Virus record (IMG/VR): IMGVR_UViG_3300022746_000001
DNA: 41,728 nt
DNA from: a virus
Taxonomy: Duplodnaviria > Heunggongvirae > Uroviricota > Caudoviricetes
Reading direction: 5' to 3' (one strand)
In this document: positions 12,524 through 25,804 of the stretch, piece by piece
How the letters are laid out: each line of letters starts with the position of its first letter
Numbering within the stretch: the first letter of the stretch is position 1
Program-made: the position numbers and the translations under genes
Notes under the pieces: generated by a model
Databases searched by the model: none
Told to the model about the DNA's origin: nothing
What the model saw: the letters and a program-made list of their open reading frames with translations, nothing else

Positions 12524-12569
12524 TAAGTCAGTAGTGACTGATTGTATAGAGTTTTTGGAACGTCATCAA
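12524..12569 (-). promoter_or_regulatory. Promoter TTGATG-N17-TACAAT with operator TAAGTCAG-TA-GTGACTGA (12524-12541) over the start site
   Basis: Read from the sequence. Confidence 0.72.
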
Positions 12570-14404
12570 TAGCCTTGTGCAGACCATGAAACGACGCCGG
12601 AAAGACGCGCACCTGTTTGGGGGTTTTCCAGAACAAGCGTGAATCCACCGTCATCTGGCGCAATGACTCTGGGAACCGCCAGTACCGTGCCGCCTTTGAG
12701 CGTAGCGGTAATTTCTGGCGTAACGTGGAAGCCACGAGTGAATGTGACACGAACTCCCGCAGCCGCCTGCGCAGCCGTGATCGTCACCGAACCAGTTTCA
12801 AACACATCGGGCACGTCCACAAAAACCTTCAACTCATTCAATTGAGCGCGGTCTTCGTTTACGGACTTCAAAACGGCGCGGAAAATGGCCTGTTGGTACT
12901 CGTGATCGCCAGGGATGAAGTCGCGGAACTCGGTGAAGCCAGGCGCTCTACCTGCTTCAATGACCTGAATGAACGAAGCCAATGTCAGAGGGTCAGTCGA
13001 GACGATCATGTCCGAGATTACCCCGTTGGCGTGGCGGCGATACTCATCAAAGATGGCGAGGGACTCGACCTTTGACAGTGTCGTTGCTTTCGCCAGCGCA
13101 TCATGGACGCTGATGTTCTCTTCAAGGTAGACGTGGTAGCTAACGGCACGACCCATCAATTCCATGATGGCGACAATTTCGTTGACCGCTAGTGTGATTT
13201 CTTTCTGGAACAGAGTTTCAACAACACCTACCTGCTCTGCGAACGCCATATCCACGTTATTGCTGTTGGATTCGGCAACATTTACGCTCTCGAAGACGCC
13301 CTTTTCAACCATGCGCTGAAGCGCTTCCGAGACTTGCAGAACTTCGAACTGCGACTTTGTCAAATCCTTAGCTGCCAACTCAGCGACATGGAATTGCTCA
13401 GAGACTGGCTTTGTGAAGTTCTTTACTGGCGTCTCGGCGACGTTCAGCGACTCCGAGATGTTCGAAGTGAACTGGCGCTTGAGTGCATCGACTAGATGCA
13501 AAGCGTCGGCAAAGTTCTTTTGAGCATTGCGTGAGGCGACTTCTTTAATCTTGATTTGTTCGAGGCGTGGAAGCGTATAGTCTTTGACTAATGTTTCCTC
13601 AATGCCGATAGTTTCCATCACTCGCAGAATGAAGGAAATGTGATCGACGTAACACTCTGCAATTCCAATGGTCTCAAATGTGTTGAGAACCATATCGCGG
13701 AAATGACTGTCGGTCAGGTTAAATGCCTCAAATGCAGCTTTTGTGAAGTCGTTGTGGGCTTTGTCGGTCAAACTAAAGCTCTCGGCGCGCTGCATTGTCA
13801 TGTCTCGTGACAGGCGATCTGACATAGAAACCGCTTCTGACAGCGCCATTGTTGCGTCGAACTTCAGTGCGTCAGACGTGTGAATGGCGTCTTTTAACGA
13901 CAGCAGAGAATCGCGCTTGAGTGCGTCAGACAGACCGATAGACACATTCGTTACAACGGTTGCGTTCTTTGCGATGGCGTCGGACATGGCAAAGCTGTCC
14001 GCGAGCTGCTTAGTGGTGTTCTTCGACACATTGTCAGAAAGCGAGAAGCCATCTGCCAGAGCGATTTGCCCTGCTTTAGCGATTGCGTCGGAGGTGGAAA
14101 TGGATTCGCCAACACTCTTGCTGGCATCTTTTCTCAACGCCTCAAGAATGTTGAGTGCGTCGTAAACATACTTGCCAATTTGCCTGTTCGAGCCATCGAC
14201 AATGCCGAAGCTCTCAGAAAATGGTCTTGTGAAATTCTTTGCGGGAGTGTCAGACGTGACAAAACTCTCGCCAACGGCGAGGTTGAAGTTTACGGTGCTG
14301 ATGTTCGCCCAAGTCGCTGTCGCTTTAGACAGCGACCAGGGGTAATCAGCGGACGCCCACTTTAGCGGCGTACCCGCAGACGAGCCGACGCTAACGGTGG
14401 TCAT
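12566..14404 (-). CDS. Tail fibre-like protein with about 23 tandem 18-aa repeats
   Basis: Units such as ASKSVGESISTSDAIAKA, GQIALADGFSLSDNVSKN and TTKQLADSFAMSDAIAKN. C-terminal beta domain. Confidence 0.75.
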   Translation of the reverse strand: MTTVSVGSSAGTPLKWASADYPWSLSKATATWANISTVNFNLAVGESFVTSDTPAKNFTRPFSESFGIVDGSNRQIGKYVYDALNILEALRKDASKSVGESISTSDAIAKAGQIALADGFSLSDNVSKNTTKQLADSFAMSDAIAKNATVVTNVSIGLSDALKRDSLLSLKDAIHTSDALKFDATMALSEAVSMSDRLSRDMTMQRAESFSLTDKAHNDFTKAAFEAFNLTDSHFRDMVLNTFETIGIAECYVDHISFILRVMETIGIEETLVKDYTLPRLEQIKIKEVASRNAQKNFADALHLVDALKRQFTSNISESLNVAETPVKNFTKPVSEQFHVAELAAKDLTKSQFEVLQVSEALQRMVEKGVFESVNVAESNSNNVDMAFAEQVGVVETLFQKEITLAVNEIVAIMELMGRAVSYHVYLEENISVHDALAKATTLSKVESLAIFDEYRRHANGVISDMIVSTDPLTLASFIQVIEAGRAPGFTEFRDFIPGDHEYQQAIFRAVLKSVNEDRAQLNELKVFVDVPDVFETGSVTITAAQAAAGVRVTFTRGFHVTPEITATLKGGTVLAVPRVIAPDDGGFTLVLENPQTGARLSGVVSWSAQGY

Positions 14405-14430
14405 ACCGCTTGTCCTTCAGTCAGGTTGAC

Positions 14431-14880
14431 TTAGGACAGGGTGAAGGTGAAGACTGTCGTCAGAGAGTCGTCAACGCCTTTGTTCACCACTGGGAACACG
14501 ACGCGATCCAGCATGGTGCCAACGGAAGCGGCATTGAAGATACCTGCTTCAGTCAAAGCGCCAGTTGCGTCACCAGCAGGGAAAGTAGACGTAAATGTGA
14601 ACGCCTTTGTGCCAGAGGTGTGCGCGTACACGGCGACGTTACGCTTAATCTCTGTCACGAGTGCAGTTTGTGCTGTGGCTGCGGCGGTTGTACCTGTACC
14701 GACAGCGGTGTAACCCATCACGGATGGACGGCTAGACGACTTGCCAATTGCGTCGGCAATGAAGTCAAAGCCAACGTCAACGATGATGTTGTCTTTTTGG
14801 GTCACTTCAACAGTGCCATCTGCCTTGGTCAACATCAGCGTCAGGGCGCCGTGCAGTTTCAGGGTATCTTTGAGTTGCAT
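14431..14880 (-). CDS. Tail-associated structural protein (hypothetical)
   Basis: N.IV..G...IA.......AVGTGTTA...QTAL..E...LTEAGIFNA.....MLDR.VF.VVNK pattern seen in fibre-anchoring proteins. AAGGAG RBS. Confidence 0.75.
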   Translation of the reverse strand: MQLKDTLKLHGALTLMLTKADGTVEVTQKDNIIVDVGFDFIADAIGKSSSRPSVMGYTAVGTGTTAAATAQTALVTEIKRNVAVYAHTSGTKAFTFTSTFPAGDATGALTEAGIFNAASVGTMLDRVVFPVVNKGVDDSLTTVFTFTLS

Positions 14881-14908
14881 TAAAAGCTCCTTGTTTAAGG
14901 TTGTGGGA

Positions 14909-14937
14909 ATTCTAAGTCACTTGTGACTGATTTGCAA
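14909..14937 (-). promoter_or_regulatory. Promoter TTGCAA-N17-TAGAAT with operator TAAGTCAC-TT-GTGACTGA (14913-14930) in the spacer
   Basis: Read from the sequence. Confidence 0.78.
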
Positions 14938-14940
14938 GCG

Positions 14941-17900
14941 TCAGTAAAGAGCCAATTTTGTGAATGGGCCGATTGGCGCATAGGGTTTCTCGTCAGCCCC
15001 AATGGATTTACCGTCCATTGAGCCAACCAGAAGACTTCGTTTACTTCCGTCCTGGGAAATGCCGATGCACAGCTTGTCCCCAGAGACGAAAGTGAATGGG
15101 ACTGTATTTTGCTTTCCGAGGTTATCTTCCAGCTTGAAGGCGCCATCGTGAATGCTATAGAAGACCTTCAGCCAACCAGAGCCGCCCGAAATCGTGACGA
15201 TATTGGCGTCTGTGACTTGAGCAGGTGTAACCCAGAAGGTCTTGCTAAACCATGTCGGAATGTCCACATTCCAATCCACGAAGGTTGTGTCTTGCACATT
15301 CAAGCCTTGACCGTAGCGCCCTTCCCCGTAGCTGACGCCCAAGTGAGTGGATGCGACACGGTTGCCGATACTATCCAAGTTACCATTCAGGCGCCAACCA
15401 TCTACGTCCGTCGGCAGTAAGCCAACATCTGTAGCGATCTGGTATAGCGCCGAAATCGAGTTATCGTCAGCGGCTGGACGCCACTTGCGGTTCGACTTCA
15501 GACTTCCCCATGAGAAGTTCGCGTTATGCCAAACCAGCGTACTTTCGTAAGCGACCGAGTCCATTGCGGTGAACAGGGTGTTTTGCGCGCGGAAGCGAAC
15601 CGGCAGCACTACGTCAAACAGGTATTCGGCGCGAGAGACGCCTTCGTCCATTACCAAGGTGTCGCTAACTACGCTTGCGCCATGTGTGACGCCTGCAAAG
15701 TTCAAAGTCTTACGATTAGATTCAACCAAGACGTTGGTGTTTTGCGGACGTGTTACGCCGACGTTGATGAAGACTGGAGTATCGCTGTAGACGCCTGGGG
15801 CGACGATAGCCTTGATCCAGAACGTGCGAGTACCGTCAGCGCCAGATGGCAGCGTGTAAGTGGTCGCCTTGACCTGCGTGACGAACTGGCTAGTGCGCCA
15901 AGCTGTGCCCTCGCGCAGCTCGTAACCAACAATGTTGTTTTCAGTGTTTGCCAGCCAACGGAATTCCAGGCGATTTCCAGACTGAATACAGTCGAACTGG
16001 CTTACCGCTGCTGGCGCGTCCAATGGCAACGTGAATGTTGTCACGTTGTCGGAATACAGACCGCCGGAGTCGAGTGAACGAATGTGATAGTGATACACGC
16101 CAGGATTGTCCTGATCGTGCGTAATCATCGTGCCTTTGAAATTGGCAATGACGATCGTACCTGAGTCCCAAGATGGGCCTACTCGAACTTCATAGCCGGA
16201 CACGTCAACGTCCGTTACCGCATCCCAAGTCAATAGCAAGTCGGTTGTGCGGCGCGTCACTTGGAAGTTCAGCACGTCGCCTGGGGCCGTGGTCTTGCCC
16301 TTTGGCAGATAGCTACCCGTGACGTTCACTGAGCGCTTGCCAAAGGAGTTCATCGACACAAGTTGGAACTCGTGCATTGACTTGCGGACGTTGTCAATGT
16401 CAATCGAGGTGTTCGATGTAGTGATTGTCTGCCATGACGTAGCGTACTTACCAGTGCGGCGCCAACGAATCTCGTACTGCGGCATGGTGCAAGTCCATGA
16501 CAGCGCCAACTTTGTACCGATCAGTCCAGGCGCCACCTCATAGGTATGCTCCTCGATGATGAAGTTAGTCGGCGTCGTAATGGCGTTTACGTCAATCACT
16601 GACGTTTTTGGCTCTTCTAGCTTCAGACCATTTTCAATGGCGCCAAACTTGGACGAGTTATGCTCGATTGCCGTCACGACAAACTGCTTGGTGTCCAGAC
16701 CGTCTTGAGCTACCGAGATGACGCGCGCCAGCAGTGGCGTCAGTGATGCTTCTGCCATGATCCAGACAGCGTTTGCGACTGGCTGTGCCGGCAGTGGGCT
16801 TACCCACGTCAGCGTTGAGTGTGTGCCGGCGCCTTGAATGACGGGGCGATCTGTAAACGTACCATCCGGCAGGCGAATCGAGATAACTGCGCCAGGGCCA
16901 GTCAGGGTGACTGGAGCGTCCAGATTGGCAGTTGTCGTTGTGCAGCCTGTCAGTCGGCCACCCATACGCTTGCCGGCGCGGAAGGTGTCGTGAATCTTGA
17001 TGACTTCGCCTGGCACAACCATCGCAGCATCAAGCCCCACCTTGAACTGAATCATGTCTGATTCAAGGCGCTCTGTGAACAGCAACCAGCGACCGGCGCG
17101 GTTTGCTTGACCACGGCTCGTACAGCCAAAAGCGACCATATCGGTCTTGCGGATACCGACCTTGGCGATCGCGTCTGTGTCTTCGACGTATTCGATCTTT
17201 TGACGGTACTTGTCATTTGGATCGTTCCAAGTGACGTTCACGACTGAGTGGCGATCTTTACGCGCGGAGCCTGTGTAGTTAAATACGCCATCAATGACGT
17301 TTGAAGGCGTAAATACGGCACTGGTGTCTGTTGGGCTATCTTGCGTAAAGCCAACAATGCCACCGTTCCAGTAAGCCATGCCACGGAATGCCGAGGTCAG
17401 GTCTGAAATCAGCTTGTAGGCTTCTGCTTGTGCCTGAACGACTGTGTTAACGACAAAGCGCGGCTCAACGCCGCCAAAGCCGTTCGGCACCATCTCGTCA
17501 CAATACTTGCCGATTTGGTACAGCTTCGCTTTGTCAACTTGGGAAGGTGACAAGTAATTACCAAGACCGTAGCGTGTATTCGTCAGCAAGTCGTACAGCA
17601 CCCACGCAGGGTTGTTCGAGATTGCCGTCTTCATGCTGCCGTTCCACACGCCGCTATAGGCTCGTGTGGTCGGGTTGTAGTTCGATGGCACTTGAATGTA
17701 GAGGCCGTCTACCAAGTACGAGCGTGAAGGAATGTGAGAGAACTGGGCCGAGTCGATACGAATGCCAACCAGCGCCGAGTTCGGGTAGCTCAACTTCGCG
17801 TTGACAATTTCGATGAAGGAGTCGAAGTACGTATCGTTCGAAATGGATGCTGACGATGCGTCACCTGTCAGACGAACCATCTGAATGTTCCAACTCACTG

Positions 17901-19041
17901 CGCCTGCTGGCTTTGGTAAGTTGATTACGTGCGCACGTTGATACTTTGAGTTTGTTTTGCCGGAGACTGTGATGCGCGGACTGTCGCTGACAACCGTGTT
18001 GTAGCCTGTGCGCGCTTCCTGCCATGTGCTTTCGCCGTCAGAAACGTCAACGTAATACGTGTATGACTGCACGTCCGAGCGCTGGAACAGAACATCCGTG
18101 TAGGGGCCATCATTGACCGAAACTCGGAATTTGTACTCGACTGTCGTGCCGTTAATATCGCCAGTTGTTGAATCTTGCGCACGTAGAGACGGAATTGTCA
18201 CCAATACGCGAACAGAATCGGCGTTGGGGTTTGTTACCGTGACCGTATGCGGCGTGGTTGTCTTAACCTGCACACCAATGTTGTATGGCGTTTCAACGTC
18301 CGAATAGCCATCAATGGGCGTTTGTGATGAGCTGCCAGTACGCTGCTCCCAAGAGACACCGCTGAAGTTCAGCGAGCCATCAGTGTTCATTACTGGCGTG
18401 TCGTCAAAGTGAATCGACTGAGCGCCGCTAACCAGGCCGCCGATCAAACCTTCACCAATCAAGTCCAGCACGGAAATCATGGCGCGCGACTGCAAGCTAT
18501 CTGCGGCTTCAACAGCGGCGCGACCACCGCCACCACCCTTACCGCCGCCACCACCTGCGCCAGCGATCACGGGATAAGTCTCTCTGTGACCGCCATTGTG
18601 AACGCGAATACCGTCAGCGATAAACGTGTGATGGGGTTCAACCGTTAGGTTGTAGACGGGTTCGTGACCGATCAATTCAGCACCAGTGACGGGGCGCAGA
18701 TGACCCATGCCGTCCACCAGCGCATCATGCGTGGTCAGACTACCCATCTCCACAAAGCTGTTGTACTGGTTCAGAACCCAGTGGTTTGGGGTGATATGAG
18801 TTTCGCCGCGCCAGAAGGAAACCTTCAGAATTGGCTGTGGTTCAGCGTGATAGTGAACCTTTGTGACTTTTGCAAGGTGCAGCGAACCGTCTTCAGCAAA
18901 TGCCAAGACCTCATCACCCTCGCGCAGCTCTTCAATGGCAATCGTTTTGCCATGCTCAAGCTGAATCTGGGTGCCTTTGCGAAAGCAACCACCGCCGCCA
19001 CCAGCGCCGCTAATCTCGATCAAATTGTTTTCTTCGCTCAT
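14941..19041 (-). CDS. Central tail fibre / tip attachment protein (lambda gpJ-like) with N-terminal Hint domain
   Basis: DLIGEG.IGGL, NPAWVLYDLLTNTRYGLG, FGCTSRGQANRAGRWLL and PGEVIKIHD motifs, plus FN3-like segments. Hint domain at residues 19-149. Confidence 0.95.
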   Translation of the reverse strand: MSEENNLIEISGAGGGGGCFRKGTQIQLEHGKTIAIEELREGDEVLAFAEDGSLHLAKVTKVHYHAEPQPILKVSFWRGETHITPNHWVLNQYNSFVEMGSLTTHDALVDGMGHLRPVTGAELIGHEPVYNLTVEPHHTFIADGIRVHNGGHRETYPVIAGAGGGGGKGGGGGRAAVEAADSLQSRAMISVLDLIGEGLIGGLVSGAQSIHFDDTPVMNTDGSLNFSGVSWEQRTGSSSQTPIDGYSDVETPYNIGVQVKTTTPHTVTVTNPNADSVRVLVTIPSLRAQDSTTGDINGTTVEYKFRVSVNDGPYTDVLFQRSDVQSYTYYVDVSDGESTWQEARTGYNTVVSDSPRITVSGKTNSKYQRAHVINLPKPAGAVSWNIQMVRLTGDASSASISNDTYFDSFIEIVNAKLSYPNSALVGIRIDSAQFSHIPSRSYLVDGLYIQVPSNYNPTTRAYSGVWNGSMKTAISNNPAWVLYDLLTNTRYGLGNYLSPSQVDKAKLYQIGKYCDEMVPNGFGGVEPRFVVNTVVQAQAEAYKLISDLTSAFRGMAYWNGGIVGFTQDSPTDTSAVFTPSNVIDGVFNYTGSARKDRHSVVNVTWNDPNDKYRQKIEYVEDTDAIAKVGIRKTDMVAFGCTSRGQANRAGRWLLFTERLESDMIQFKVGLDAAMVVPGEVIKIHDTFRAGKRMGGRLTGCTTTTANLDAPVTLTGPGAVISIRLPDGTFTDRPVIQGAGTHSTLTWVSPLPAQPVANAVWIMAEASLTPLLARVISVAQDGLDTKQFVVTAIEHNSSKFGAIENGLKLEEPKTSVIDVNAITTPTNFIIEEHTYEVAPGLIGTKLALSWTCTMPQYEIRWRRTGKYATSWQTITTSNTSIDIDNVRKSMHEFQLVSMNSFGKRSVNVTGSYLPKGKTTAPGDVLNFQVTRRTTDLLLTWDAVTDVDVSGYEVRVGPSWDSGTIVIANFKGTMITHDQDNPGVYHYHIRSLDSGGLYSDNVTTFTLPLDAPAAVSQFDCIQSGNRLEFRWLANTENNIVGYELREGTAWRTSQFVTQVKATTYTLPSGADGTRTFWIKAIVAPGVYSDTPVFINVGVTRPQNTNVLVESNRKTLNFAGVTHGASVVSDTLVMDEGVSRAEYLFDVVLPVRFRAQNTLFTAMDSVAYESTLVWHNANFSWGSLKSNRKWRPAADDNSISALYQIATDVGLLPTDVDGWRLNGNLDSIGNRVASTHLGVSYGEGRYGQGLNVQDTTFVDWNVDIPTWFSKTFWVTPAQVTDANIVTISGGSGWLKVFYSIHDGAFKLEDNLGKQNTVPFTFVSGDKLCIGISQDGSKRSLLVGSMDGKSIGADEKPYAPIGPFTKLALY
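18595..18987 (-). other. Hint (intein-like) domain, Cys19-Asn149 of gpJ
   Basis: Begins CFRKGTQI, has block-B ITPNH, and ends VYNLTVEPHHTFIADGIRVHN. The +1 residue is Gly. Confidence 0.92.
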
Positions 19042-19048
19042 GGCGGCC

Positions 19049-19636
19049 TTACATCAGTTGATCCACCGTCACGGCGGCTGTAATTGCGTGAGAGCCTGTA
19101 AGAATTCGTCCGTAAATCAGAGGCACTGGAATGCCCTGCATTGACGTATTCACAGGCCCGTCAAAGTAGTACGAGGTTTGGTCTTTTCGTGTGGCTGCGT
19201 CATTGTTAAGCGACGGTTTTGGCGTCAGCATCTCAATCACTGAGCCAACCATCATCGACACACCAGCCATACCAATGGCTGTACCGACTGGGCCGGAGAA
19301 CCATGAAGTGCCGAAGCCGATGATTGCTAAGGTTGCGCCAATTACAAACCGCACTCCGGCGCTTGCGCCCTCAATAATCGGAACAATGTGTACCGACTTG
19401 GGTTTGCGTTCAGCCCAAAAGGTGTCGTCATCCAGCTCTTCAGTTCGCTCGTCGTCGTACTGACAGATGACTTGGTAGCGCGGATACTCAGGCAGTGAAC
19501 TCTTGATCCAATTGAACAGGCCAGGCTTGTTCGCGTCAATGATGCGAAGACCTTCAGCGATCGAAGTCGCCTCAATGTCCCACTCGCGCCCAAACTTCTT
19601 ACCGAGCGCGCCTTCCAGAATGATTAGTGTAGACAT
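19049..19636 (-). CDS. Tail assembly protein I (ubiquitin-like N-terminus)
   Basis: L.G.LGKKFGR...HIVPIIEGA and YYFDGPVNTSMQGIPVPLIYGR motifs. Start at MSTLII. Confidence 0.92.
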   Translation of the reverse strand: MSTLIILEGALGKKFGREWDIEATSIAEGLRIIDANKPGLFNWIKSSLPEYPRYQVICQYDDERTEELDDDTFWAERKPKSVHIVPIIEGASAGVRFVIGATLAIIGFGTSWFSGPVGTAIGMAGVSMMVGSVIEMLTPKPSLNNDAATRKDQTSYYFDGPVNTSMQGIPVPLIYGRILTGSHAITAAVTVDQLM

Positions 19637-20367
19637 TTCGTTTTGTGCCTCAAATGGTGCGTCGTGTGTTTTGCCCACATGCCGCCATAAACGTCACGGC
19701 GCGACAGTCGGTTCTGGCAGTGATGCAGAATCAAGTCGTCGCCGATATACGCCGCAATGTGGTTTGGAATGTCCGCCGCCACTTGCATGATGAACAGGTC
19801 GCCCACTTCAGGTTCTTGGTCAATCAAGAGTTCGAAGCCCTGCTCTGGGTAGCCTTCCGTGAAGAAGTCCAGACCTTTCTTCCAGAAGTTTTCAACTCGT
19901 GGGTATTCGCCTAGCGTGATGCCAAACTCGCGGCTGTAGTAGTCGCGAATCAGCGTGTAGCAGTCGTAAACGCCGAATAGGTATGGTCGCTCCAAGTAAT
20001 CCACTTCAGCATCAGATGGCTGAAGCGTGTGAATTGGAGTGAATGTCATGCCCTCTTCTGTCTTGTATGCGCCGATGATGAACCATTCGACACCAGATGA
20101 ATTGCAGCCTGCAACGTCTGCTGGCGAAGGGTTGGCTGGTAGCTCAACATGCGTATGCCAGATGCCGATAACCTCACCCTGATTCGCCGCCTTCACGTAG
20201 TCGTGCGGGTCGATTCGAAAGTAATTGCGAGGATCGCTGGCGATGTTTTTGCAAGGAATGATGATTGCTTTCTTGCCGGCAGACACGACTACCCCACACG
20301 ATTCATTGGGGTAGTTCAGTTCCGCCTGCTGGCGCATCACCTCTTCAAGATCGTTGTGATTAACCAT
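19624..20367 (-). CDS. Tail assembly protein K (JAB/MPN + NlpC/P60)
   Basis: YPNESCG, WHTH...PSPAD JAB motif, then FGVYDCYTLIRDYY and NHIAAYIG...ILHH NlpC motifs. Confidence 0.95.
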   Translation of the reverse strand: MVNHNDLEEVMRQQAELNYPNESCGVVVSAGKKAIIIPCKNIASDPRNYFRIDPHDYVKAANQGEVIGIWHTHVELPANPSPADVAGCNSSGVEWFIIGAYKTEEGMTFTPIHTLQPSDAEVDYLERPYLFGVYDCYTLIRDYYSREFGITLGEYPRVENFWKKGLDFFTEGYPEQGFELLIDQEPEVGDLFIMQVAADIPNHIAAYIGDDLILHHCQNRLSRRDVYGGMWAKHTTHHLRHKTKCLH

Positions 20368-21397: not shown

Positions 21398-21427
21398 ATT
21401 ATAAGTCACTGGTTACTTATAAAGCAA
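21398..21427 (-). promoter_or_regulatory. Promoter TTGCTT-N18-TATAAT with operator TAAGTCAC-TG-GTTACTTA (21402-21419) in the spacer
   Basis: Perfect -10, only 7 nt before the gpM ATG. Confidence 0.72.
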
Positions 21428-24400
21428 ACCGCCAGGACGGGTTTGAGTGACAAGCTCAGTGCGAACAACGTCCTTCACTTTGTTTGCCATCGAAGTCCAG
21501 TCTTGGGCGCTATCGCCGGAAGCTGACGCATTAGATGTGCCATCTTTGTTCACGACAATGTTGATGCTCACGTTTGTGCCAGTGGCGGCAGCGCTGTTTG
21601 CGATACCTTGAGGCGCGCTCATGGTCACGGGGATGGAGCGACCGTCCGGCAGCGGAACGTAGGCTTCATTCATGCTGCCCTCGCCGAACAACGCCAGTTG
21701 TGGGCTTGTTGCTACGCCACCATTAGCGTAAGCCTTCAGTGACAGTGGGCCGGACGAAGTCATGATGCCGCCGTCGGCAAACGCTGCACCTGCGGCTGAC
21801 GTAGTGACCATTTCAGCCATTGCTGCGCTAACCACCGCCACCATTTCGCCCATCGAGCTTGTGGTGACGAGGCTCATTTCGCCCATCGCGGTAGTCAACC
21901 CAGTCATGCCAGTTGTCATTTCGGTCACAACGGTGGTCATGGCTGTAGTCGTTTCCGCAGTCATGGTTGTCATGGCTGTCGTCACGGCCGCCGTCTGAGC
22001 TGCGCCGGTAGTTGCGCCGGTTGCGGCTGTAGTAGCTGCACCTGTCGCGGCCGAGGTTGCGGCCGAAGTCGTTGCTGCTGCGGCAGCTTGTTGACCAGCG
22101 CCAGCCATCATCCCCTTGCCGATGCCCTTCACCAAACTACCAAGCATATCTGCCAGCGGTTCTGCAAATTGCTTCTGCAAGAAGATTTTGTAGACTTGGG
22201 TTGCCATGTCAGCAACCATTTTGCGCCACTCAACTTTGCCGCCAGTGGTCAGCGTAACCATCGTGTCGATGAAGCTATTAGCCCAGTTTGCAGACAGGCG
22301 GTTCATCTGATCCACGGTGTTCTGCCAACCGTTTGTCAGACGATCTAGTTCAGTCATTGAACCAGTACGCATCTGCACATTGGCGCGCTCTTGCGCGATT
22401 GTGCGAGCTTCTGTCGCACGAATCATCACATCGTTGAAGCGCTTGACAGCTTCTTCAGTATTGCCTGCCTTTTGCAGCTCATCCTGCGCCAGACGCTGAC
22501 GCAAGTTGTATTGCTCGTTGATCCGAGCCATCTCATTTTCATGAGCGCGTTTCTTTTGATCTTCCAGACTTGCGGTGAGGTTGTACTCTTCCTCTTTAGC
22601 CTTGCGCAGCTTTTCGGCTTCGTCAGCGTAAGCGTTGTTTGCGGCCGTCATCATCGTGTCAGCCACGAGTTCGGCGCGCGCCTGCTGGTATACCTTCAGG
22701 TTCTCTTTAGCTGAGAGATACTTAGCCTCTTCTTTGTCCAGCGCTTTGATGAGCGACAGCGTTGCAGTCTCTTCTTTTGCCAGACCTTGAGTGGCATAGC
22801 GCTCTTCAGAAGCAGCCAGCGCATCCTTGGCAGCCGCAGCTTTGCCGCGAATGTCGGTGATGAGCTTTTGAGCCTCTGGGATTGAATTAAGTGTCGTTCT
22901 CTCTTCGATGATGCCCTTGAGCGACTTCTTGACCGCCGCATCCATCGTGTCGATGGAGTCGATGAACTTGCCAATATCGGTGTTGCCTTCGGCGAGATAC
23001 TGACGCAGACGAGCGACGTATTGACCGCGATCGGCACCGCCGCGACGTTCAACTTGGGTCTTGCCATCTTCATTCTTGACGGTCTTGTCAAACTCGCCCT
23101 TGGCAACCTTACCCATCAATTCCAGGGCGGTCTCTTGACGAATCTGGTCGATGCCGCGAACACCGCGAACCGTTGCTTCCAGTTTGGCTTGAGCTGCGGC
23201 CACTTGACCTTCGAGGTCGAGCAGCATCTCGGCCAATGGGTCACGTTTGCGACCCTCGCCTTTACCACCCAGAACCGCCGTAAAGCCGATGCGAGACTGC
23301 TGGTACTTGGTCTCCAGCGAATCACGCATTTTGCCCATCTCAACGATACCGACTTCGAGGGCTTTCGCCTCTTCTTCGCTCATCTTCAATTGTCCGTCTT
23401 TGAACAATTGCAGGTTGCGGCGCTTTTCGCGTGTGAGGTTGTCGATCGCCACTTTTTCGGCGTCGATTTGTTCGCGGTTCAGTTGATCGCGGCGTTCGTT
23501 GTACTTTGTGATGACAGCCTTGCGTTTAGCTTGGTTGTCACCCATCAACTTCAGTTCTTCATCTTCCTGATTCTTCAGTTCGATGTAGCGCTGACGGAAC
23601 ACTGAGCCAGCGTCATCTTTGACGTTGTCCACTTCGGCGCGCAGACCCTGCACCAGCGAAGCGACGTTGTTGCGGCCGGCGATTTTCTTGGCGCGCTCAA
23701 GTTGCTCTTCCATCTGGTCAACTTGGGTGCGCAGCTCGTCAATCCACTGGCTCTTCTTCTTAGTTACATCCTTGCCGTCTTTGTCGGTGAAGGTGATTTC
23801 GCGGCTTGCGCTGCCACCTTGTGTGAGCAAAGATTCCAGGCGCGCTTTCTTCACACCCAGTTCAGCTTGGATATTGGCGACGCTGGCGTTGTCTGCGAAA
23901 CCTTTGTTCAGGTCTTCAATCGCCTTGTACGCTTTGCGCATACGGTCAGCCGACTTCTCGGCCGCCTCACCGATCTTGTTCCAAATCCAGATTACGCCTT
24001 CTACGGCCGCTGTCACGAGGGCGAACTGCACACCCATCGCCACCAGCGACAGAGTGAAGCCTTTCAGTGAAGACCATAGACCCTCCAGAACAGCTTTCAT
24101 GCCGCCCCAGACACCCGACAGAGTGCCGGCGCCCATGCTCAATTTAGTTTGTGCGGCTGCGGCCATCTCTGCGGCCGTCGCTTGTTGCGCGAGAGCGGCG
24201 TTCTGACCGTGAATGGCGTGAGTAGATTCGTCAATGAACTTGCTGTGACGCTGCTCCAGCGCAATGAGACGTTCTTTCTCTTTGATCGAGCGTTGGATTG
24301 CGGCAATTTCTGCATCAATCGTAGCTGCTGCACCGCCGGCCACGCCAGCGTTCGCGCGGAAGCGATCGGCTTCTGCTTGCATCTCACGAGCGAGTGCTGC

Positions 24401-25804
24401 CGTGCCAGCCTTCTTGCGACGCATCATTTCTTCAGCGGCAAGTTCTTTCGCCATCGTCTGCGCGAGGAACTGCTCTTGCAGCGCCATCATTTCGGCGTAG
24501 CGGTCGCGGCGCTCCAGAATCAGTTTGCGCGATTGCTCGATTTCCGATTCCATCTCACGCGCGTTCGCCAAGTGCTGTGCAGTCTTGGTCGAGTTCAGAG
24601 ATTGGATTTGCTTTTCGTTTGCTTCGATACGGAAGCGCAGTTCGTTGGCTTTGATAGCCTCCATGCGCTTCACGTCTTCTTGTTCTTGAATCAGGTTGTC
24701 ACGCGCCGCTGCACGGGCTGTTGCGAAGGCAGCGATGATGCCGTCAGCTCCTGATTTGAATGGGGCGACCATGCTGGCAACTTTGGATACCAGCAGCGCC
24801 GTGATTGCAGCCTGAATCTCGTCAGAGTATTTGACGATGAAGTCCTTGACGGTCGCGAAGATGCGAACCAAGTCTTCCAGCAGATTGCCGAGCTTGTTCG
24901 CCCACGATTCAGCCGTTGTGGTGTCGAAGGCGTCGATGATCTTCTTCAGTTCTTGACGTGCGGCTTCGAAGCCACCTGTCTTGCCGACTTCAACCTTAAA
25001 CATTTCCCACTTGGTCTTGAGCTTTTCAATTTGCCCGTTCCAAGTGTCCATCATGTCTTTAGCGTAGCCAGCGTTCTGCATCTCCATCTGGAAGAACATC
25101 TTGGACAGACCTTGCTGTGCATCGACAACGCCCTGACCAACTTTCTTTGCCAGATCAGCGACAGACAAGCCAAGACCTTCAGACATTAACTGCATCGCAT
25201 TAGGCATTGCTTCACCCAACTGCTGACGCAATTCTTCCATCGAGATTACGCCCTTACCTGCCATCTGTTGAATAGCGATGGAAGCGCGGTGCATAATGTC
25301 CGATGTGCCACCGAACTTAGCGATGGAGTTTGTGAGTGCCTGGAGCTTACCGTCCGTTGGGTCGAGACCGGCGGTCTTCAACTTGACGAACGAATCTGTC
25401 AGGGCTTTAACCTCAAATGGCGCATTCTGCGCCAGGTTGAAAACGAACTTGACGCCGGCAGCCGCTTCAGCTTTACGCTTGTAGTCGTCTGTCTCGGCGC
25501 TGAGACCTTCCATGAGTTTGGTGAGACGTTCAATCTCGCCAGAGGTCTTGAGAACGGCCTTGGGGAAGGCAAGGAATACGTCGTTCAGGTCAGCCATTGC
25601 GAAGCGCAACAGCGACATGGTGAAGACTGTATCGTGGAACTTTTTGCCGAGCGAGGTGAAGTGAGTTTCGAGGTTACGGGCAGACACTGCGGTCTGTTCC
25701 ATACTCCGCTTCATTTCGGACAACACTTGATTATTCTTGACCGTTTTGATCGAGAAGTCTTTGTCGTCCAGCGTCATTACGACTTTGATTTCACCGCCTA
25801 GCAT
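21413..25804 (-). CDS. Tape measure protein (1463 aa)
   Basis: Long helical protein between the chaperones and gpM. Tape-measure domain (IQQMAGKGVISMEELRQQLGEAMP) and C-terminal FADGG...ALFGEGSMNEAYVPL. Confidence 0.96.
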   Translation of the reverse strand: MLGGEIKVVMTLDDKDFSIKTVKNNQVLSEMKRSMEQTAVSARNLETHFTSLGKKFHDTVFTMSLLRFAMADLNDVFLAFPKAVLKTSGEIERLTKLMEGLSAETDDYKRKAEAAAGVKFVFNLAQNAPFEVKALTDSFVKLKTAGLDPTDGKLQALTNSIAKFGGTSDIMHRASIAIQQMAGKGVISMEELRQQLGEAMPNAMQLMSEGLGLSVADLAKKVGQGVVDAQQGLSKMFFQMEMQNAGYAKDMMDTWNGQIEKLKTKWEMFKVEVGKTGGFEAARQELKKIIDAFDTTTAESWANKLGNLLEDLVRIFATVKDFIVKYSDEIQAAITALLVSKVASMVAPFKSGADGIIAAFATARAAARDNLIQEQEDVKRMEAIKANELRFRIEANEKQIQSLNSTKTAQHLANAREMESEIEQSRKLILERRDRYAEMMALQEQFLAQTMAKELAAEEMMRRKKAGTAALAREMQAEADRFRANAGVAGGAAATIDAEIAAIQRSIKEKERLIALEQRHSKFIDESTHAIHGQNAALAQQATAAEMAAAAQTKLSMGAGTLSGVWGGMKAVLEGLWSSLKGFTLSLVAMGVQFALVTAAVEGVIWIWNKIGEAAEKSADRMRKAYKAIEDLNKGFADNASVANIQAELGVKKARLESLLTQGGSASREITFTDKDGKDVTKKKSQWIDELRTQVDQMEEQLERAKKIAGRNNVASLVQGLRAEVDNVKDDAGSVFRQRYIELKNQEDEELKLMGDNQAKRKAVITKYNERRDQLNREQIDAEKVAIDNLTREKRRNLQLFKDGQLKMSEEEAKALEVGIVEMGKMRDSLETKYQQSRIGFTAVLGGKGEGRKRDPLAEMLLDLEGQVAAAQAKLEATVRGVRGIDQIRQETALELMGKVAKGEFDKTVKNEDGKTQVERRGGADRGQYVARLRQYLAEGNTDIGKFIDSIDTMDAAVKKSLKGIIEERTTLNSIPEAQKLITDIRGKAAAAKDALAASEERYATQGLAKEETATLSLIKALDKEEAKYLSAKENLKVYQQARAELVADTMMTAANNAYADEAEKLRKAKEEEYNLTASLEDQKKRAHENEMARINEQYNLRQRLAQDELQKAGNTEEAVKRFNDVMIRATEARTIAQERANVQMRTGSMTELDRLTNGWQNTVDQMNRLSANWANSFIDTMVTLTTGGKVEWRKMVADMATQVYKIFLQKQFAEPLADMLGSLVKGIGKGMMAGAGQQAAAAATTSAATSAATGAATTAATGATTGAAQTAAVTTAMTTMTAETTTAMTTVVTEMTTGMTGLTTAMGEMSLVTTSSMGEMVAVVSAAMAEMVTTSAAGAAFADGGIMTSSGPLSLKAYANGGVATSPQLALFGEGSMNEAYVPLPDGRSIPVTMSAPQGIANSAAATGTNVSINIVVNKDGTSNASASGDSAQDWTSMANKVKDVVRTELVTQTRPGGLLYK

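Follow-up and report, generated by a model that had tools for sequence, protein, structure and literature searches.

What is an intein-like domain doing at the very start of a phage tail-tip protein, and what becomes of it once the protein has been made? The question is raised by a locus in a 41,728-nucleotide stretch of tailed-phage DNA (Caudoviricetes; IMG/VR record IMGVR_UViG_3300022746_000001), the whole of which is referred to here as the window. The locus is the 5′ end of the gene for gpJ, the counterpart of the lambda central tail fibre protein (TipJ). On sequence comparison and structure prediction, the domain is a small Hint domain of the type-A bacterial intein-like (BIL) kind with a complete set of catalytic residues, and it probably removes itself from gpJ.

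Layout, fold and conservation of the Hint domain

Positions 18520-19041 of the window encode residues 1-174 of gpJ on the minus strand. The gene and the parts of its N-terminal cassette are as follows:

14941-19041 (minus): gpJ/TipJ central tail fibre (tail tip) gene, 1366 amino acids, with the N-terminal cassette; assigned from Pfam, phrog_31, NCBIfam and synteny
18988-19041 (minus): leader (N-extein), M1-G18, 18 amino acids ending in I-S-G-A-G-G-G-G-G; it duplicates the native gpJ N-terminus, the same motif opening the Hint-less relatives
18595-18987 (minus): Hint/type-A BIL-like domain, C19-N149, 131 amino acids; assigned from the profile, AlphaFold2 (AF2), Foldseek, TIGR01443 and invariant residues
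18571-18594 (minus): C-flank linker, G150-G151-H-R-E-T-Y-P157; assigned from conservation of Gly at +1 and +2, and predicted to be disordered
18523-18570 (minus): native Gly-rich N-terminal arm of gpJ, V158-IAGAGGGGGKGGGGG173; assigned from a DNA alignment and from alignments to lambda gpJ and lambda_TipJ
18541-18560 (strand not applicable): downstream copy of a 20-nucleotide direct repeat, with its partner at 18988-19007

The leader closes with the string I-E-I-S-G-A-G-G-G-G-G, and the downstream arm segment reads V158-IAGAGGGGGKGGGGG-R174. The isoleucines of the two I-x-G-A-G-G-G-G-G motifs, I10 and I159, lie 149 codons apart, and the motif pair corresponds to the direct repeat, the copies of which (18988-19007 and 18541-18560) are 85% identical at a spacing of 447 nucleotides. 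Within the domain, Cys1 is C19, block B reads T84-P-N-H87, block F contains V-Y-N131-L-T-V followed by H-T-F, and the domain terminates with H148-N149; the linker behind it has the consensus GG[HYF]Rx[RT][YF]P in the clade to which this gpJ belongs. A preliminary description, made from the letters alone, had drawn the same layout (an 18-residue leader, 131 residues from Cys to His-Asn, and the motif repeated 149 codons apart), which agrees exactly with the minus-strand reading; the intact Cys1, block-B TxxH and terminal His-Asn, the Gly at +1 and the lack of a homing endonuclease can likewise all be read in the gpJ open reading frame. With no endonuclease insert, the 131 residues correspond to the size of a mini-intein. 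The layout is more than a chance assembly of motifs, as judged from its recurrence in at least 161 homologues and from the confident fold prediction.

A profile built from a 54-sequence alignment of the gpJ N-terminus was searched against the sequences of the Protein Data Bank (PDB). The best match was the 'bacterial intein-like domain' of Clostridium thermocellum (PDB code: 2LWY; E = 6e-19), followed by BIL2 of Tetrahymena BUBL (PDB codes: 6TMM and 6Y75; approximately 9e-13); the mini-inteins gp41-1 and Mtu RecA ranked after both, the best intein scoring 1.3e-12. An AF2 model computed from the same alignment has a predicted local distance difference test score above 95 over residues 20-149, with disordered flanks. 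When this model was submitted to Foldseek, BUBL BIL2 (6Y75) was the top match (E = 1e-11; TM-score 0.82 on the target), 2LWY superposed with a TM-score of 0.87 and a root-mean-square deviation of 1.5 Å, and inteins and Hedgehog followed; there were 64 PDB matches with E ≤ 1e-3, and the 50 listed were all BIL, intein or Hedgehog Hint domains. The confident model and these matches place the domain within the horseshoe-like, all-beta fold of the HINT superfamily. Family models add to this: NCBIfam TIGR01443 (intein_Cterm) matches residues 128-149 with 27.2 bits (cut-off 15.6), and the block-F/G string V-Y-N-L-T-V-E-P-H-H-T-F...R-V-H-N mirrors V-Y-N-F-K-V-D-D-F-H-T-Y...L-V-H-N of 2LWY. Single-profile matches in Pfam are weak, and are to PT-HINT, Hint_2, Vint and the Hedgehog Hint; PT-HINT (PF07591) scores 29.4 bits on residues 1-200 and 25.0 on the whole protein, against a gathering threshold of 27.7.

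Within the superfamily, the domain has several sequence features of type-A BILs: an N-terminal nucleophile (C19) with the block-B TxxH (T84 and H87, in 161/161 sequences), a C-terminal His-Asn pair (H148-N149), a non-nucleophilic +1 residue (Gly), and a closer relationship to a verified type-A BIL than to inteins (6e-19 versus 1.3e-12). Its host is a conserved phage structural protein, but the insertion point is a variable, dispensable Gly-rich arm. A canonical class 1 intein would carry Cys, Ser or Thr where this domain has Gly150; nor does the site resemble that of such an intein, as empty alleles exist at the same spot, the disordered arm that receives the domain is missing from many gpJ proteins, and its flank is duplicated, rather than simply interrupted, in the present clade. 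The Hog region of Hedgehog proteins is not seen either: the Hint domain ends at His-Asn and is followed directly by gpJ.

When residues 1-200 were used in a word-indexed search, full-length gpJ proteins of at least 120 clusters proved to share this N-terminus at 59-100% identity, and an exhaustive search returned 2789 proteins at E ≤ 1e-3. Across the 161 gpJ-borne Hint domains compared, T84, H87, H65 and N131 are invariant; the -1 residue is Gly in 157, position +1 holds Gly in 152 and Ala in five, but Cys, Ser or Thr in none, and Gly occupies +2 in 158. Loss of Cys1 or of the terminal His-Asn was seen in none of the sampled Hint-bearing gpJ sequences, the two failures of the pattern being a truncated gene call and a protein with Gln at +1. 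The leaders of the homologues vary from 7 to 37 residues and are poorly conserved except for I-x-G-x-GGG. Against the closest Hint-bearing relative (L058), the ratio of non-synonymous to synonymous substitution rates (dN/dS) of the Hint domain is 0.069 at a dS of 1.27, whereas the gpJ core gives 0.11-0.15 at similarly saturated dS values of 1.3-1.85. The Hint domain is thus under strong purifying selection and, in this pair, is as old as the gpJ gene that carries it. A recent transfer of the domain between the two phages was considered and is ruled out, since its dS is as saturated as that of the core.

Optional presence and movement of the cassette

Presence and absence of the Hint domain were scored among the 120 nearest relatives as defined by the gpJ core (residues 200-760), a sample unbiased toward the domain. 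In this survey of homologues, which the preliminary description had called for, 65 carry the domain and 55 do not. On a maximum-likelihood tree of the cores, at least 15 changes of presence are required, at least seven of them on well-supported branches (39.9 with shuffled labels), and the fully supported five-member clade of the present gpJ itself contains two Hint-bearing and three Hint-less members. The Hint-less phage L057 and the Hint-bearing L058 have the same I, K and L genes and the same genome layout.

The Hint-less proteins also reveal which of the two flanking motifs is the native one. They start M-K-E-E-E-K-Q-I-V-I-A-G-A-G-G-G-G-K-G-G-G..., and in a DNA alignment their start codon region pairs with the downstream copy and not with the leader; consistent with this, residues 2-35 of lambda gpJ align to positions 160-193 of the profile, i.e. 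after the Hint domain, and residues 2-35 of the lambda_TipJ model align to residues 167-200 of the present gpJ. Given this pairing of the Hint-less start with the downstream copy, a cut at N149|G150 would restore a native-like N-terminus: it would leave the eight-residue stub GGHRETYP ahead of V-I-A-G-A-G, where the Hint-less proteins have seven or eight residues. The Gly arm is wholly missing from many other gpJ proteins (P0263 and similar sequences start ..EA-DSLRS), and it is therefore a tolerant, dispensable site. An internal GTG start at V158, from which a Hint-less gpJ might be translated directly, is ruled out, as the codon is GTC in the closest Hint-bearing relative and the position varies within the family.

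The preliminary description had treated the domain as flanked by a duplicated motif. This holds for the present phage, though not as a general rule: the second I-x-G copy is specific to certain clades, and 13 of 155 homologues run from HN|G-G-G-G-K-G-G-G-G straight into the arm. Where both copies exist, the x of I-x-G is the same in 72 of 140 proteins, where chance would give 39 and the highest value among 1000 shuffles was 51; among phylogenetically independent pairs, about seven changed in the same direction and one in the opposite direction (median p 0.04; p 0.18 for the A/S position). There is, accordingly, moderate support from sequence comparison for concerted evolution of the two flank copies, a pattern to be expected if the Gly-codon repeats undergo gene conversion or unequal crossing-over, or if the cassette was inserted repeatedly and duplicated its target each time. 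Some gpJ proteins (P0105, P0131 and P0153) have two tandem Hint domains ahead of the native N-terminus, which is consistent with unequal crossing-over in the same repeats; the flanking repeats may also give a route for precise loss of the cassette.

Over the family as a whole, Hint identity tracks core identity (Spearman 0.78), the Hint domain being the more conserved on average (58.5% versus 49%). Three proteins depart from the trend: P0023, P0030 and P0040 have Hint domains that are 84-88% identical to those of the present clade, whereas their cores are just 45-49% identical (about 53% is typical). Because these Hint domains are so much closer than the cores that follow them, the cassette has been swapped between divergent gpJ lineages and, with the endonuclease absent, recombination within the tail genes is the likely vehicle of its movement.

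Fate of the Hint domain and competing explanations

In type-A BILs, a thioester is formed at the N-terminal junction, cyclization of the terminal Asn cuts the C-terminal bond, and the α-amine thereby freed can ligate the flanks; cleavage products dominate over ligation (PMC4031507). In gpJ, Cys19 would form a thioester at the G18-C19 bond by an N-S acyl shift, with T84 and H87 assisting, and Asn149 would cyclize with the help of H148, breaking the N149-G150 bond. The main product would be gpJ starting at G150 (GGHRETYP followed by VIAGAGGGGGK...), with an arm like that of the Hint-less relatives, and the processed protein would then join the tip hub together with gpL and gpI. The leader thioester would be hydrolysed, except in a minority of the molecules, where the α-amine of Gly150 would attack it and the leader would be spliced on. 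At the level of the gene, the cassette would spread and disappear through recombination in the Gly-codon repeats. We infer all of the chemical steps, and likewise the absence of the Hint domain from virions. In relation to the latter, it takes the N-terminal region of lambda gpJ and the Fe-S domain of gpL together to complete the HDII-insertion domain, and the lumen is plugged by gpI (PMC10721106, PMC11101478). Inside the tip, the start of gpJ is in contact with gpI and with the Fe-S domain of gpL, so that by analogy there would probably be no room for three additional domains of 15 kDa.

We consider it probable, on this comparative evidence, that the Hint domain is a self-removing pro-domain and an optional passenger cassette, one that must stay active and is possibly of modest benefit, but is not a required maturation device. 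The preliminary description had proposed a removable pro-domain that releases a normal gpJ N-terminus; the retention of the catalytic residues and the downstream alignment of the Hint-less starts argue for this part of the proposal, at the level of sequence. It had further set canonical splicing aside in view of the +1 residue, which stands, although ligation through the aminolysis known from type-A BILs (PMC4031507) may still be available to the domain. Several observations weigh against the passenger interpretation. The invariance of Cys1, the -1 Gly and the block-B His shows that the N-terminal reaction is also selected, and yet pure C-terminal cutting needs no N-terminal reaction unless the two steps are mechanistically coupled; by implication the N-terminal step is of consequence, owing to such coupling or because ligation is used. 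Moreover, the long co-divergence of Hint domain and core, and persistence through saturated dS despite flanking direct repeats that ought to permit a precise and harmless loss, argue for some benefit and against a pure passenger; the homing endonuclease is absent, hence there is no known active drive.

Other explanations can be set beside this one. In the likeliest of them, which corresponds to the timer or shield of the preliminary description, the pro-domain would be adaptive, delaying or gating the entry of gpJ into the tip complex or guarding the N-terminal arm until assembly. Purifying selection is stronger on the Hint domain than on the core, the two co-diverge over long times, and the cassette is kept in about half of the relatives though its flanking repeats would permit precise loss; an insert that removes itself from an essential protein would, however, be conserved to the same extent in any case, the domain is dispensed with in sister phages that agree in layout and in their I, K and L genes (L057 compared with L058), tandem double copies exist (P0131, P0153 and P0105), and the same Hint family occurs in unrelated contexts, such that we regard an adaptive role as possible, albeit on the doubtful side. 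The preliminary description had also raised a mask against host defences that modify tail tips, which would be a speculative role; central tail fibres are indeed a target of Bil, a defence system of the ubiquitin-like type. Alternatively, true splicing could be the main outcome, the α-amine of Gly150 attacking the Gly18 thioester so that mature gpJ keeps the leader joined to GGHRETYP-VIAGAG.... All the residues needed (Cys1, Gly at -1, the block-B Thr and His, Gly at +1 and +2) are conserved, aminolysis is least hindered when, as here, both flanking residues are Gly, and the C. thermocellum BIL (2LWY), the best sequence match, is reported to ligate without a nucleophilic side-chain (title cited in PMC4031507); in the 13 homologues without a downstream duplicate, splicing would even be the sole route to the native M..I-x-G-x-GGG-GGGGK arm. 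Set against this, cleavage products dominate in type-A BILs, the native motif is already present downstream in the present clade, where ligation adds nothing obvious, and the many gpJ proteins without the whole arm make it doubtful that the leader is needed; splicing as the main outcome is, in our view, unlikely.

Three further explanations involve the neighbouring tail genes or the chemistry of ubiquitin-like proteins, for which two more genes of the window have to be introduced:

19049-19678 (minus): gpI (tail assembly protein I) with a ubiquitin-like domain; assigned from phrog_32 (5e-48), alignment with lambda gpI and PMC1779556
19624-20391 (minus): gpK, with JAB metallopeptidase and NlpC/P60 peptidase domains, a possible alternative processing enzyme; assigned from Pfam Prok-JAB (8e-16) and NLPC_P60 (3e-15)

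According to a published prediction, gpI is cleaved by the JAB domain of gpK behind its ubiquitin-like part, at the C-terminal Gly of that domain (PMC1779556). The gpI tail, V-P-I-I-E-G-A-S-A-G, in which V, P, G, A and G are invariant (lambda included), resembles Y-P-V-I-A-G-A-G-G-G of gpJ, and the gpK of this phage has both peptidase domains; conceivably, then, the peptidase could remove the cassette, wholly or additionally, by cutting at P-V-I-A-G-A-G-G. We think this improbable: the resemblance is between short Gly-rich motifs and may be coincidental, it leaves the invariance of the Hint catalytic residues unexplained, Hint-less and Hint-bearing phages share the same gpK, and cleavage of gpI by gpK is itself just a prediction. 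By analogy with BUBL, the Hint domain might instead be a tail-assembly device, supplying a Gly thioester and/or an N-terminal Gly-Gly amine for ligation in the tail tip independently of ATP and E1; the leader, or the gpI ubiquitin-like domain by way of the gpK peptidases, might then be joined to the gpJ arm, in a phage counterpart of the BUBL 'ubiquitination by protein splicing', a scheme to which we attach a very low probability. Lower still is that of thioester conjugation proper, in which the Gly-ended leader would be transferred to the ε-amine of a lysine, for example K168 in the arm or one in another tip protein. BUBL BIL2, which forms an isopeptide between a Lys ε-amine and a C-terminus (PMC8616854), ranks first among the structural matches, the leader has an oligo-Gly end that recalls the ubiquitin-like tail of gpI, and the arm has a conserved Lys; the leader is, however, only 7-37 residues long, shows little conservation outside I-x-G-x-GGG and does not form a ubiquitin-like fold, and Hint-less gpJ proteins have the Lys as well. 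The least credible explanation is that an inactive Hint domain is retained on virion gpJ as a structural or adhesive module, as the residues that serve only chemistry (Cys1, the block-B Thr and His, the terminal His-Asn and a small +1 residue) are invariant or nearly so in 161 sequences.

Distribution, genomic setting and relation to known Hint systems

The cassette belongs largely to phages that have not been brought into culture. A megablast search with the gpJ gene gave no match among cultured phages, and a tblastn search with residues 1-175 against 50,697 cultured-phage records (INPHARED) found no gpJ-borne Hint domain, returning only true inteins of Vibrio phage helicase genes at 28-30% identity. 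In the 185,579 species genomes of GTDB, there are just about nine close loci, mostly in metagenome-assembled genomes (MAGs): they fall in Betaproteobacteria, Oxalobacter, Castellaniella and several MAGs of doubtful binning; the remaining matches are weaker or partial (at most 38% identity, or the C-terminal ~20-60 residues alone) and come mostly from Alphaproteobacteria. A prophage protein of Herbaspirillum huttiense with the cassette is labelled 'TipJ family' by NCBI. The cassette is found mostly on metagenomic contigs of about 100-110 kb. Many contigs of this length that encode related gpJ proteins also share the tail-gene order, which suggests that uncultured ~105-kb siphophages, probably with Betaproteobacteria as hosts, make up a large and coherent family.

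The same Hint subfamily is also found in quite different layouts. In bacterial proteins, it forms arrays of three to 10 back-to-back copies with junctions of the form ...HNKG(G)|CF...; in P0133 and P0160, a signal peptide precedes the array, and behind it come a Gly-rich stretch, then a membrane segment and lastly a C-terminal region (Tim44-like by Pfam in P0133), P0163 has three copies behind a signal peptide, and P0206 has ten. In P0187, P0216 and P0222, the domain sits at the extreme C-terminus of proteins of 570-700 residues with no other Pfam domain, and P0186 is a free-standing Hint domain of 151 amino acids. These other-layout members score strongly on PT-HINT, distant tandem-copy relatives reaching 187 bits.

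The identity of the gene is secure. The gpJ protein matches Pfam Phage-tail_3 (4e-31) and FNIII-A_GpJ (3e-28), phrog_31 'central tail fiber J' (E = 4e-279) and NCBIfam lambda_TipJ (1e-143); the first two, within the lambda-like gene order H-M-L-K-I-J (also that of L057 and L058), identify it as a lambda gpJ/TipJ tail tip protein. Upstream of it, in the lambda order, lie the tape measure gene (21413-25804), gpM, gpL, gpK and gpI. A gpI-gpJ fusion through read-through is ruled out, the gpI stop codon and the gpJ ATG being 7 nucleotides apart and out of frame. On the opposite strand, an open reading frame for 139 amino acids (18664-19083, plus) overlies the Hint coding region and is most likely spurious, given the purifying selection on the minus strand. 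Directly downstream of gpJ, the genes at 12566-14404 and 14431-14880 (both minus) encode products of 612 and 149 amino acids with zero Pfam matches and weak PHROG tail-fibre matches; in L057 and L058, gpJ is likewise trailed by genes of the sizes of this pair. In L057, a radical-SAM gene (14370-15552) stands just past the tail-fibre modules.

We found no description of a Hint or BIL domain on a gpJ-type tail protein in the full-text literature, so that the gpJ-borne cassette is undescribed as far as that search reached, the BIL kind of domain itself being already known. Newly derived here are the homology between the downstream copy and the native start, the co-variation of the flanks, the dN/dS comparison, the exchange outliers and the resemblance to the gpI tail. 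Should the proposed chemistry be true, a BIL-type Hint domain would turn a structural protein of the virion into a self-processing pro-protein, and a natural, widespread (hundreds of sequence clusters), endonuclease-free intein-like element would be kept in phage tail genes. The system could address how BIL domains persist and move without homing, whether the native outcome of a type-A BIL is cleavage or ligation by aminolysis, and whether the gpI/gpK ubiquitin-like module of lambda-type tails meets thioester chemistry; compact Gly|Cys...HN|Gly-Gly self-cleaving tags may, moreover, be of use in protein engineering. The named prophage hosts (Herbaspirillum huttiense and the Oxalobacter isolate OttesenSCG-928-P03; Castellaniella as a MAG only) would make experiments feasible, strains permitting.

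Among known systems, the closest is the C. thermocellum BIL (2LWY), with about 28% identity; work on type-A BILs is represented by Amitai 2003, Dassa 2004 and Aranko 2013, as cited in PMC4031507. The gpJ domain shares with it a length of ~130-140 amino acids, Cys1, TxxH, the block-F pattern V-Y-N-[LF]-x-V...H-T-[FY] and the terminal His-Asn, as well as the absence of both a +1 nucleophile and an endonuclease; type B BIL domains lack the C-terminal His-Asn of inteins. The BILs described so far occupy hypervariable regions of non-conserved bacterial, often secreted, proteins (PMC7765530). Unlike the type-A examples, the gpJ domain lies right at the N-terminal end of a virion protein, preceded only by a leader of 7-37 residues, keeps Gly-Gly at +1/+2 and, in the present clade, has the N-terminal motif of its host doubled around it. 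Tetrahymena thermophila BUBL BIL2 (6TMM, 6Y75; about 24% identity) similarly stands after a Gly-ended segment; however, it belongs to a eukaryotic polyprotein and follows a folded ubiquitin-like domain that it conjugates to lysines, whereas the gpJ leader is short and unstructured. The best Pfam family, PT-HINT (PF07591; the pre-toxin HINT of polymorphic toxins), also places a Hint domain just upstream of a module to be released, though in gpJ there is neither a toxin nor a secretion context, and the released module would be a structural tail protein. With the canonical mini-inteins (gp41-1, Mtu RecA and Npu DnaE/DnaB), the gpJ domain shares the fold and blocks A, B, F and G; it differs in Gly at +1, Asn at block F position 4, a disordered and dispensable insertion arm, and an N-extein that is merely vestigial. 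Finally, the Hedgehog Hog-Hint (1AT0, 6TYY) has the same Gly|Cys-Phe scissile junction and Hint fold, but lacks the terminal His-Asn and resolves its thioester through a sterol-recognition region; the gpJ Hint domain follows it in neither respect.

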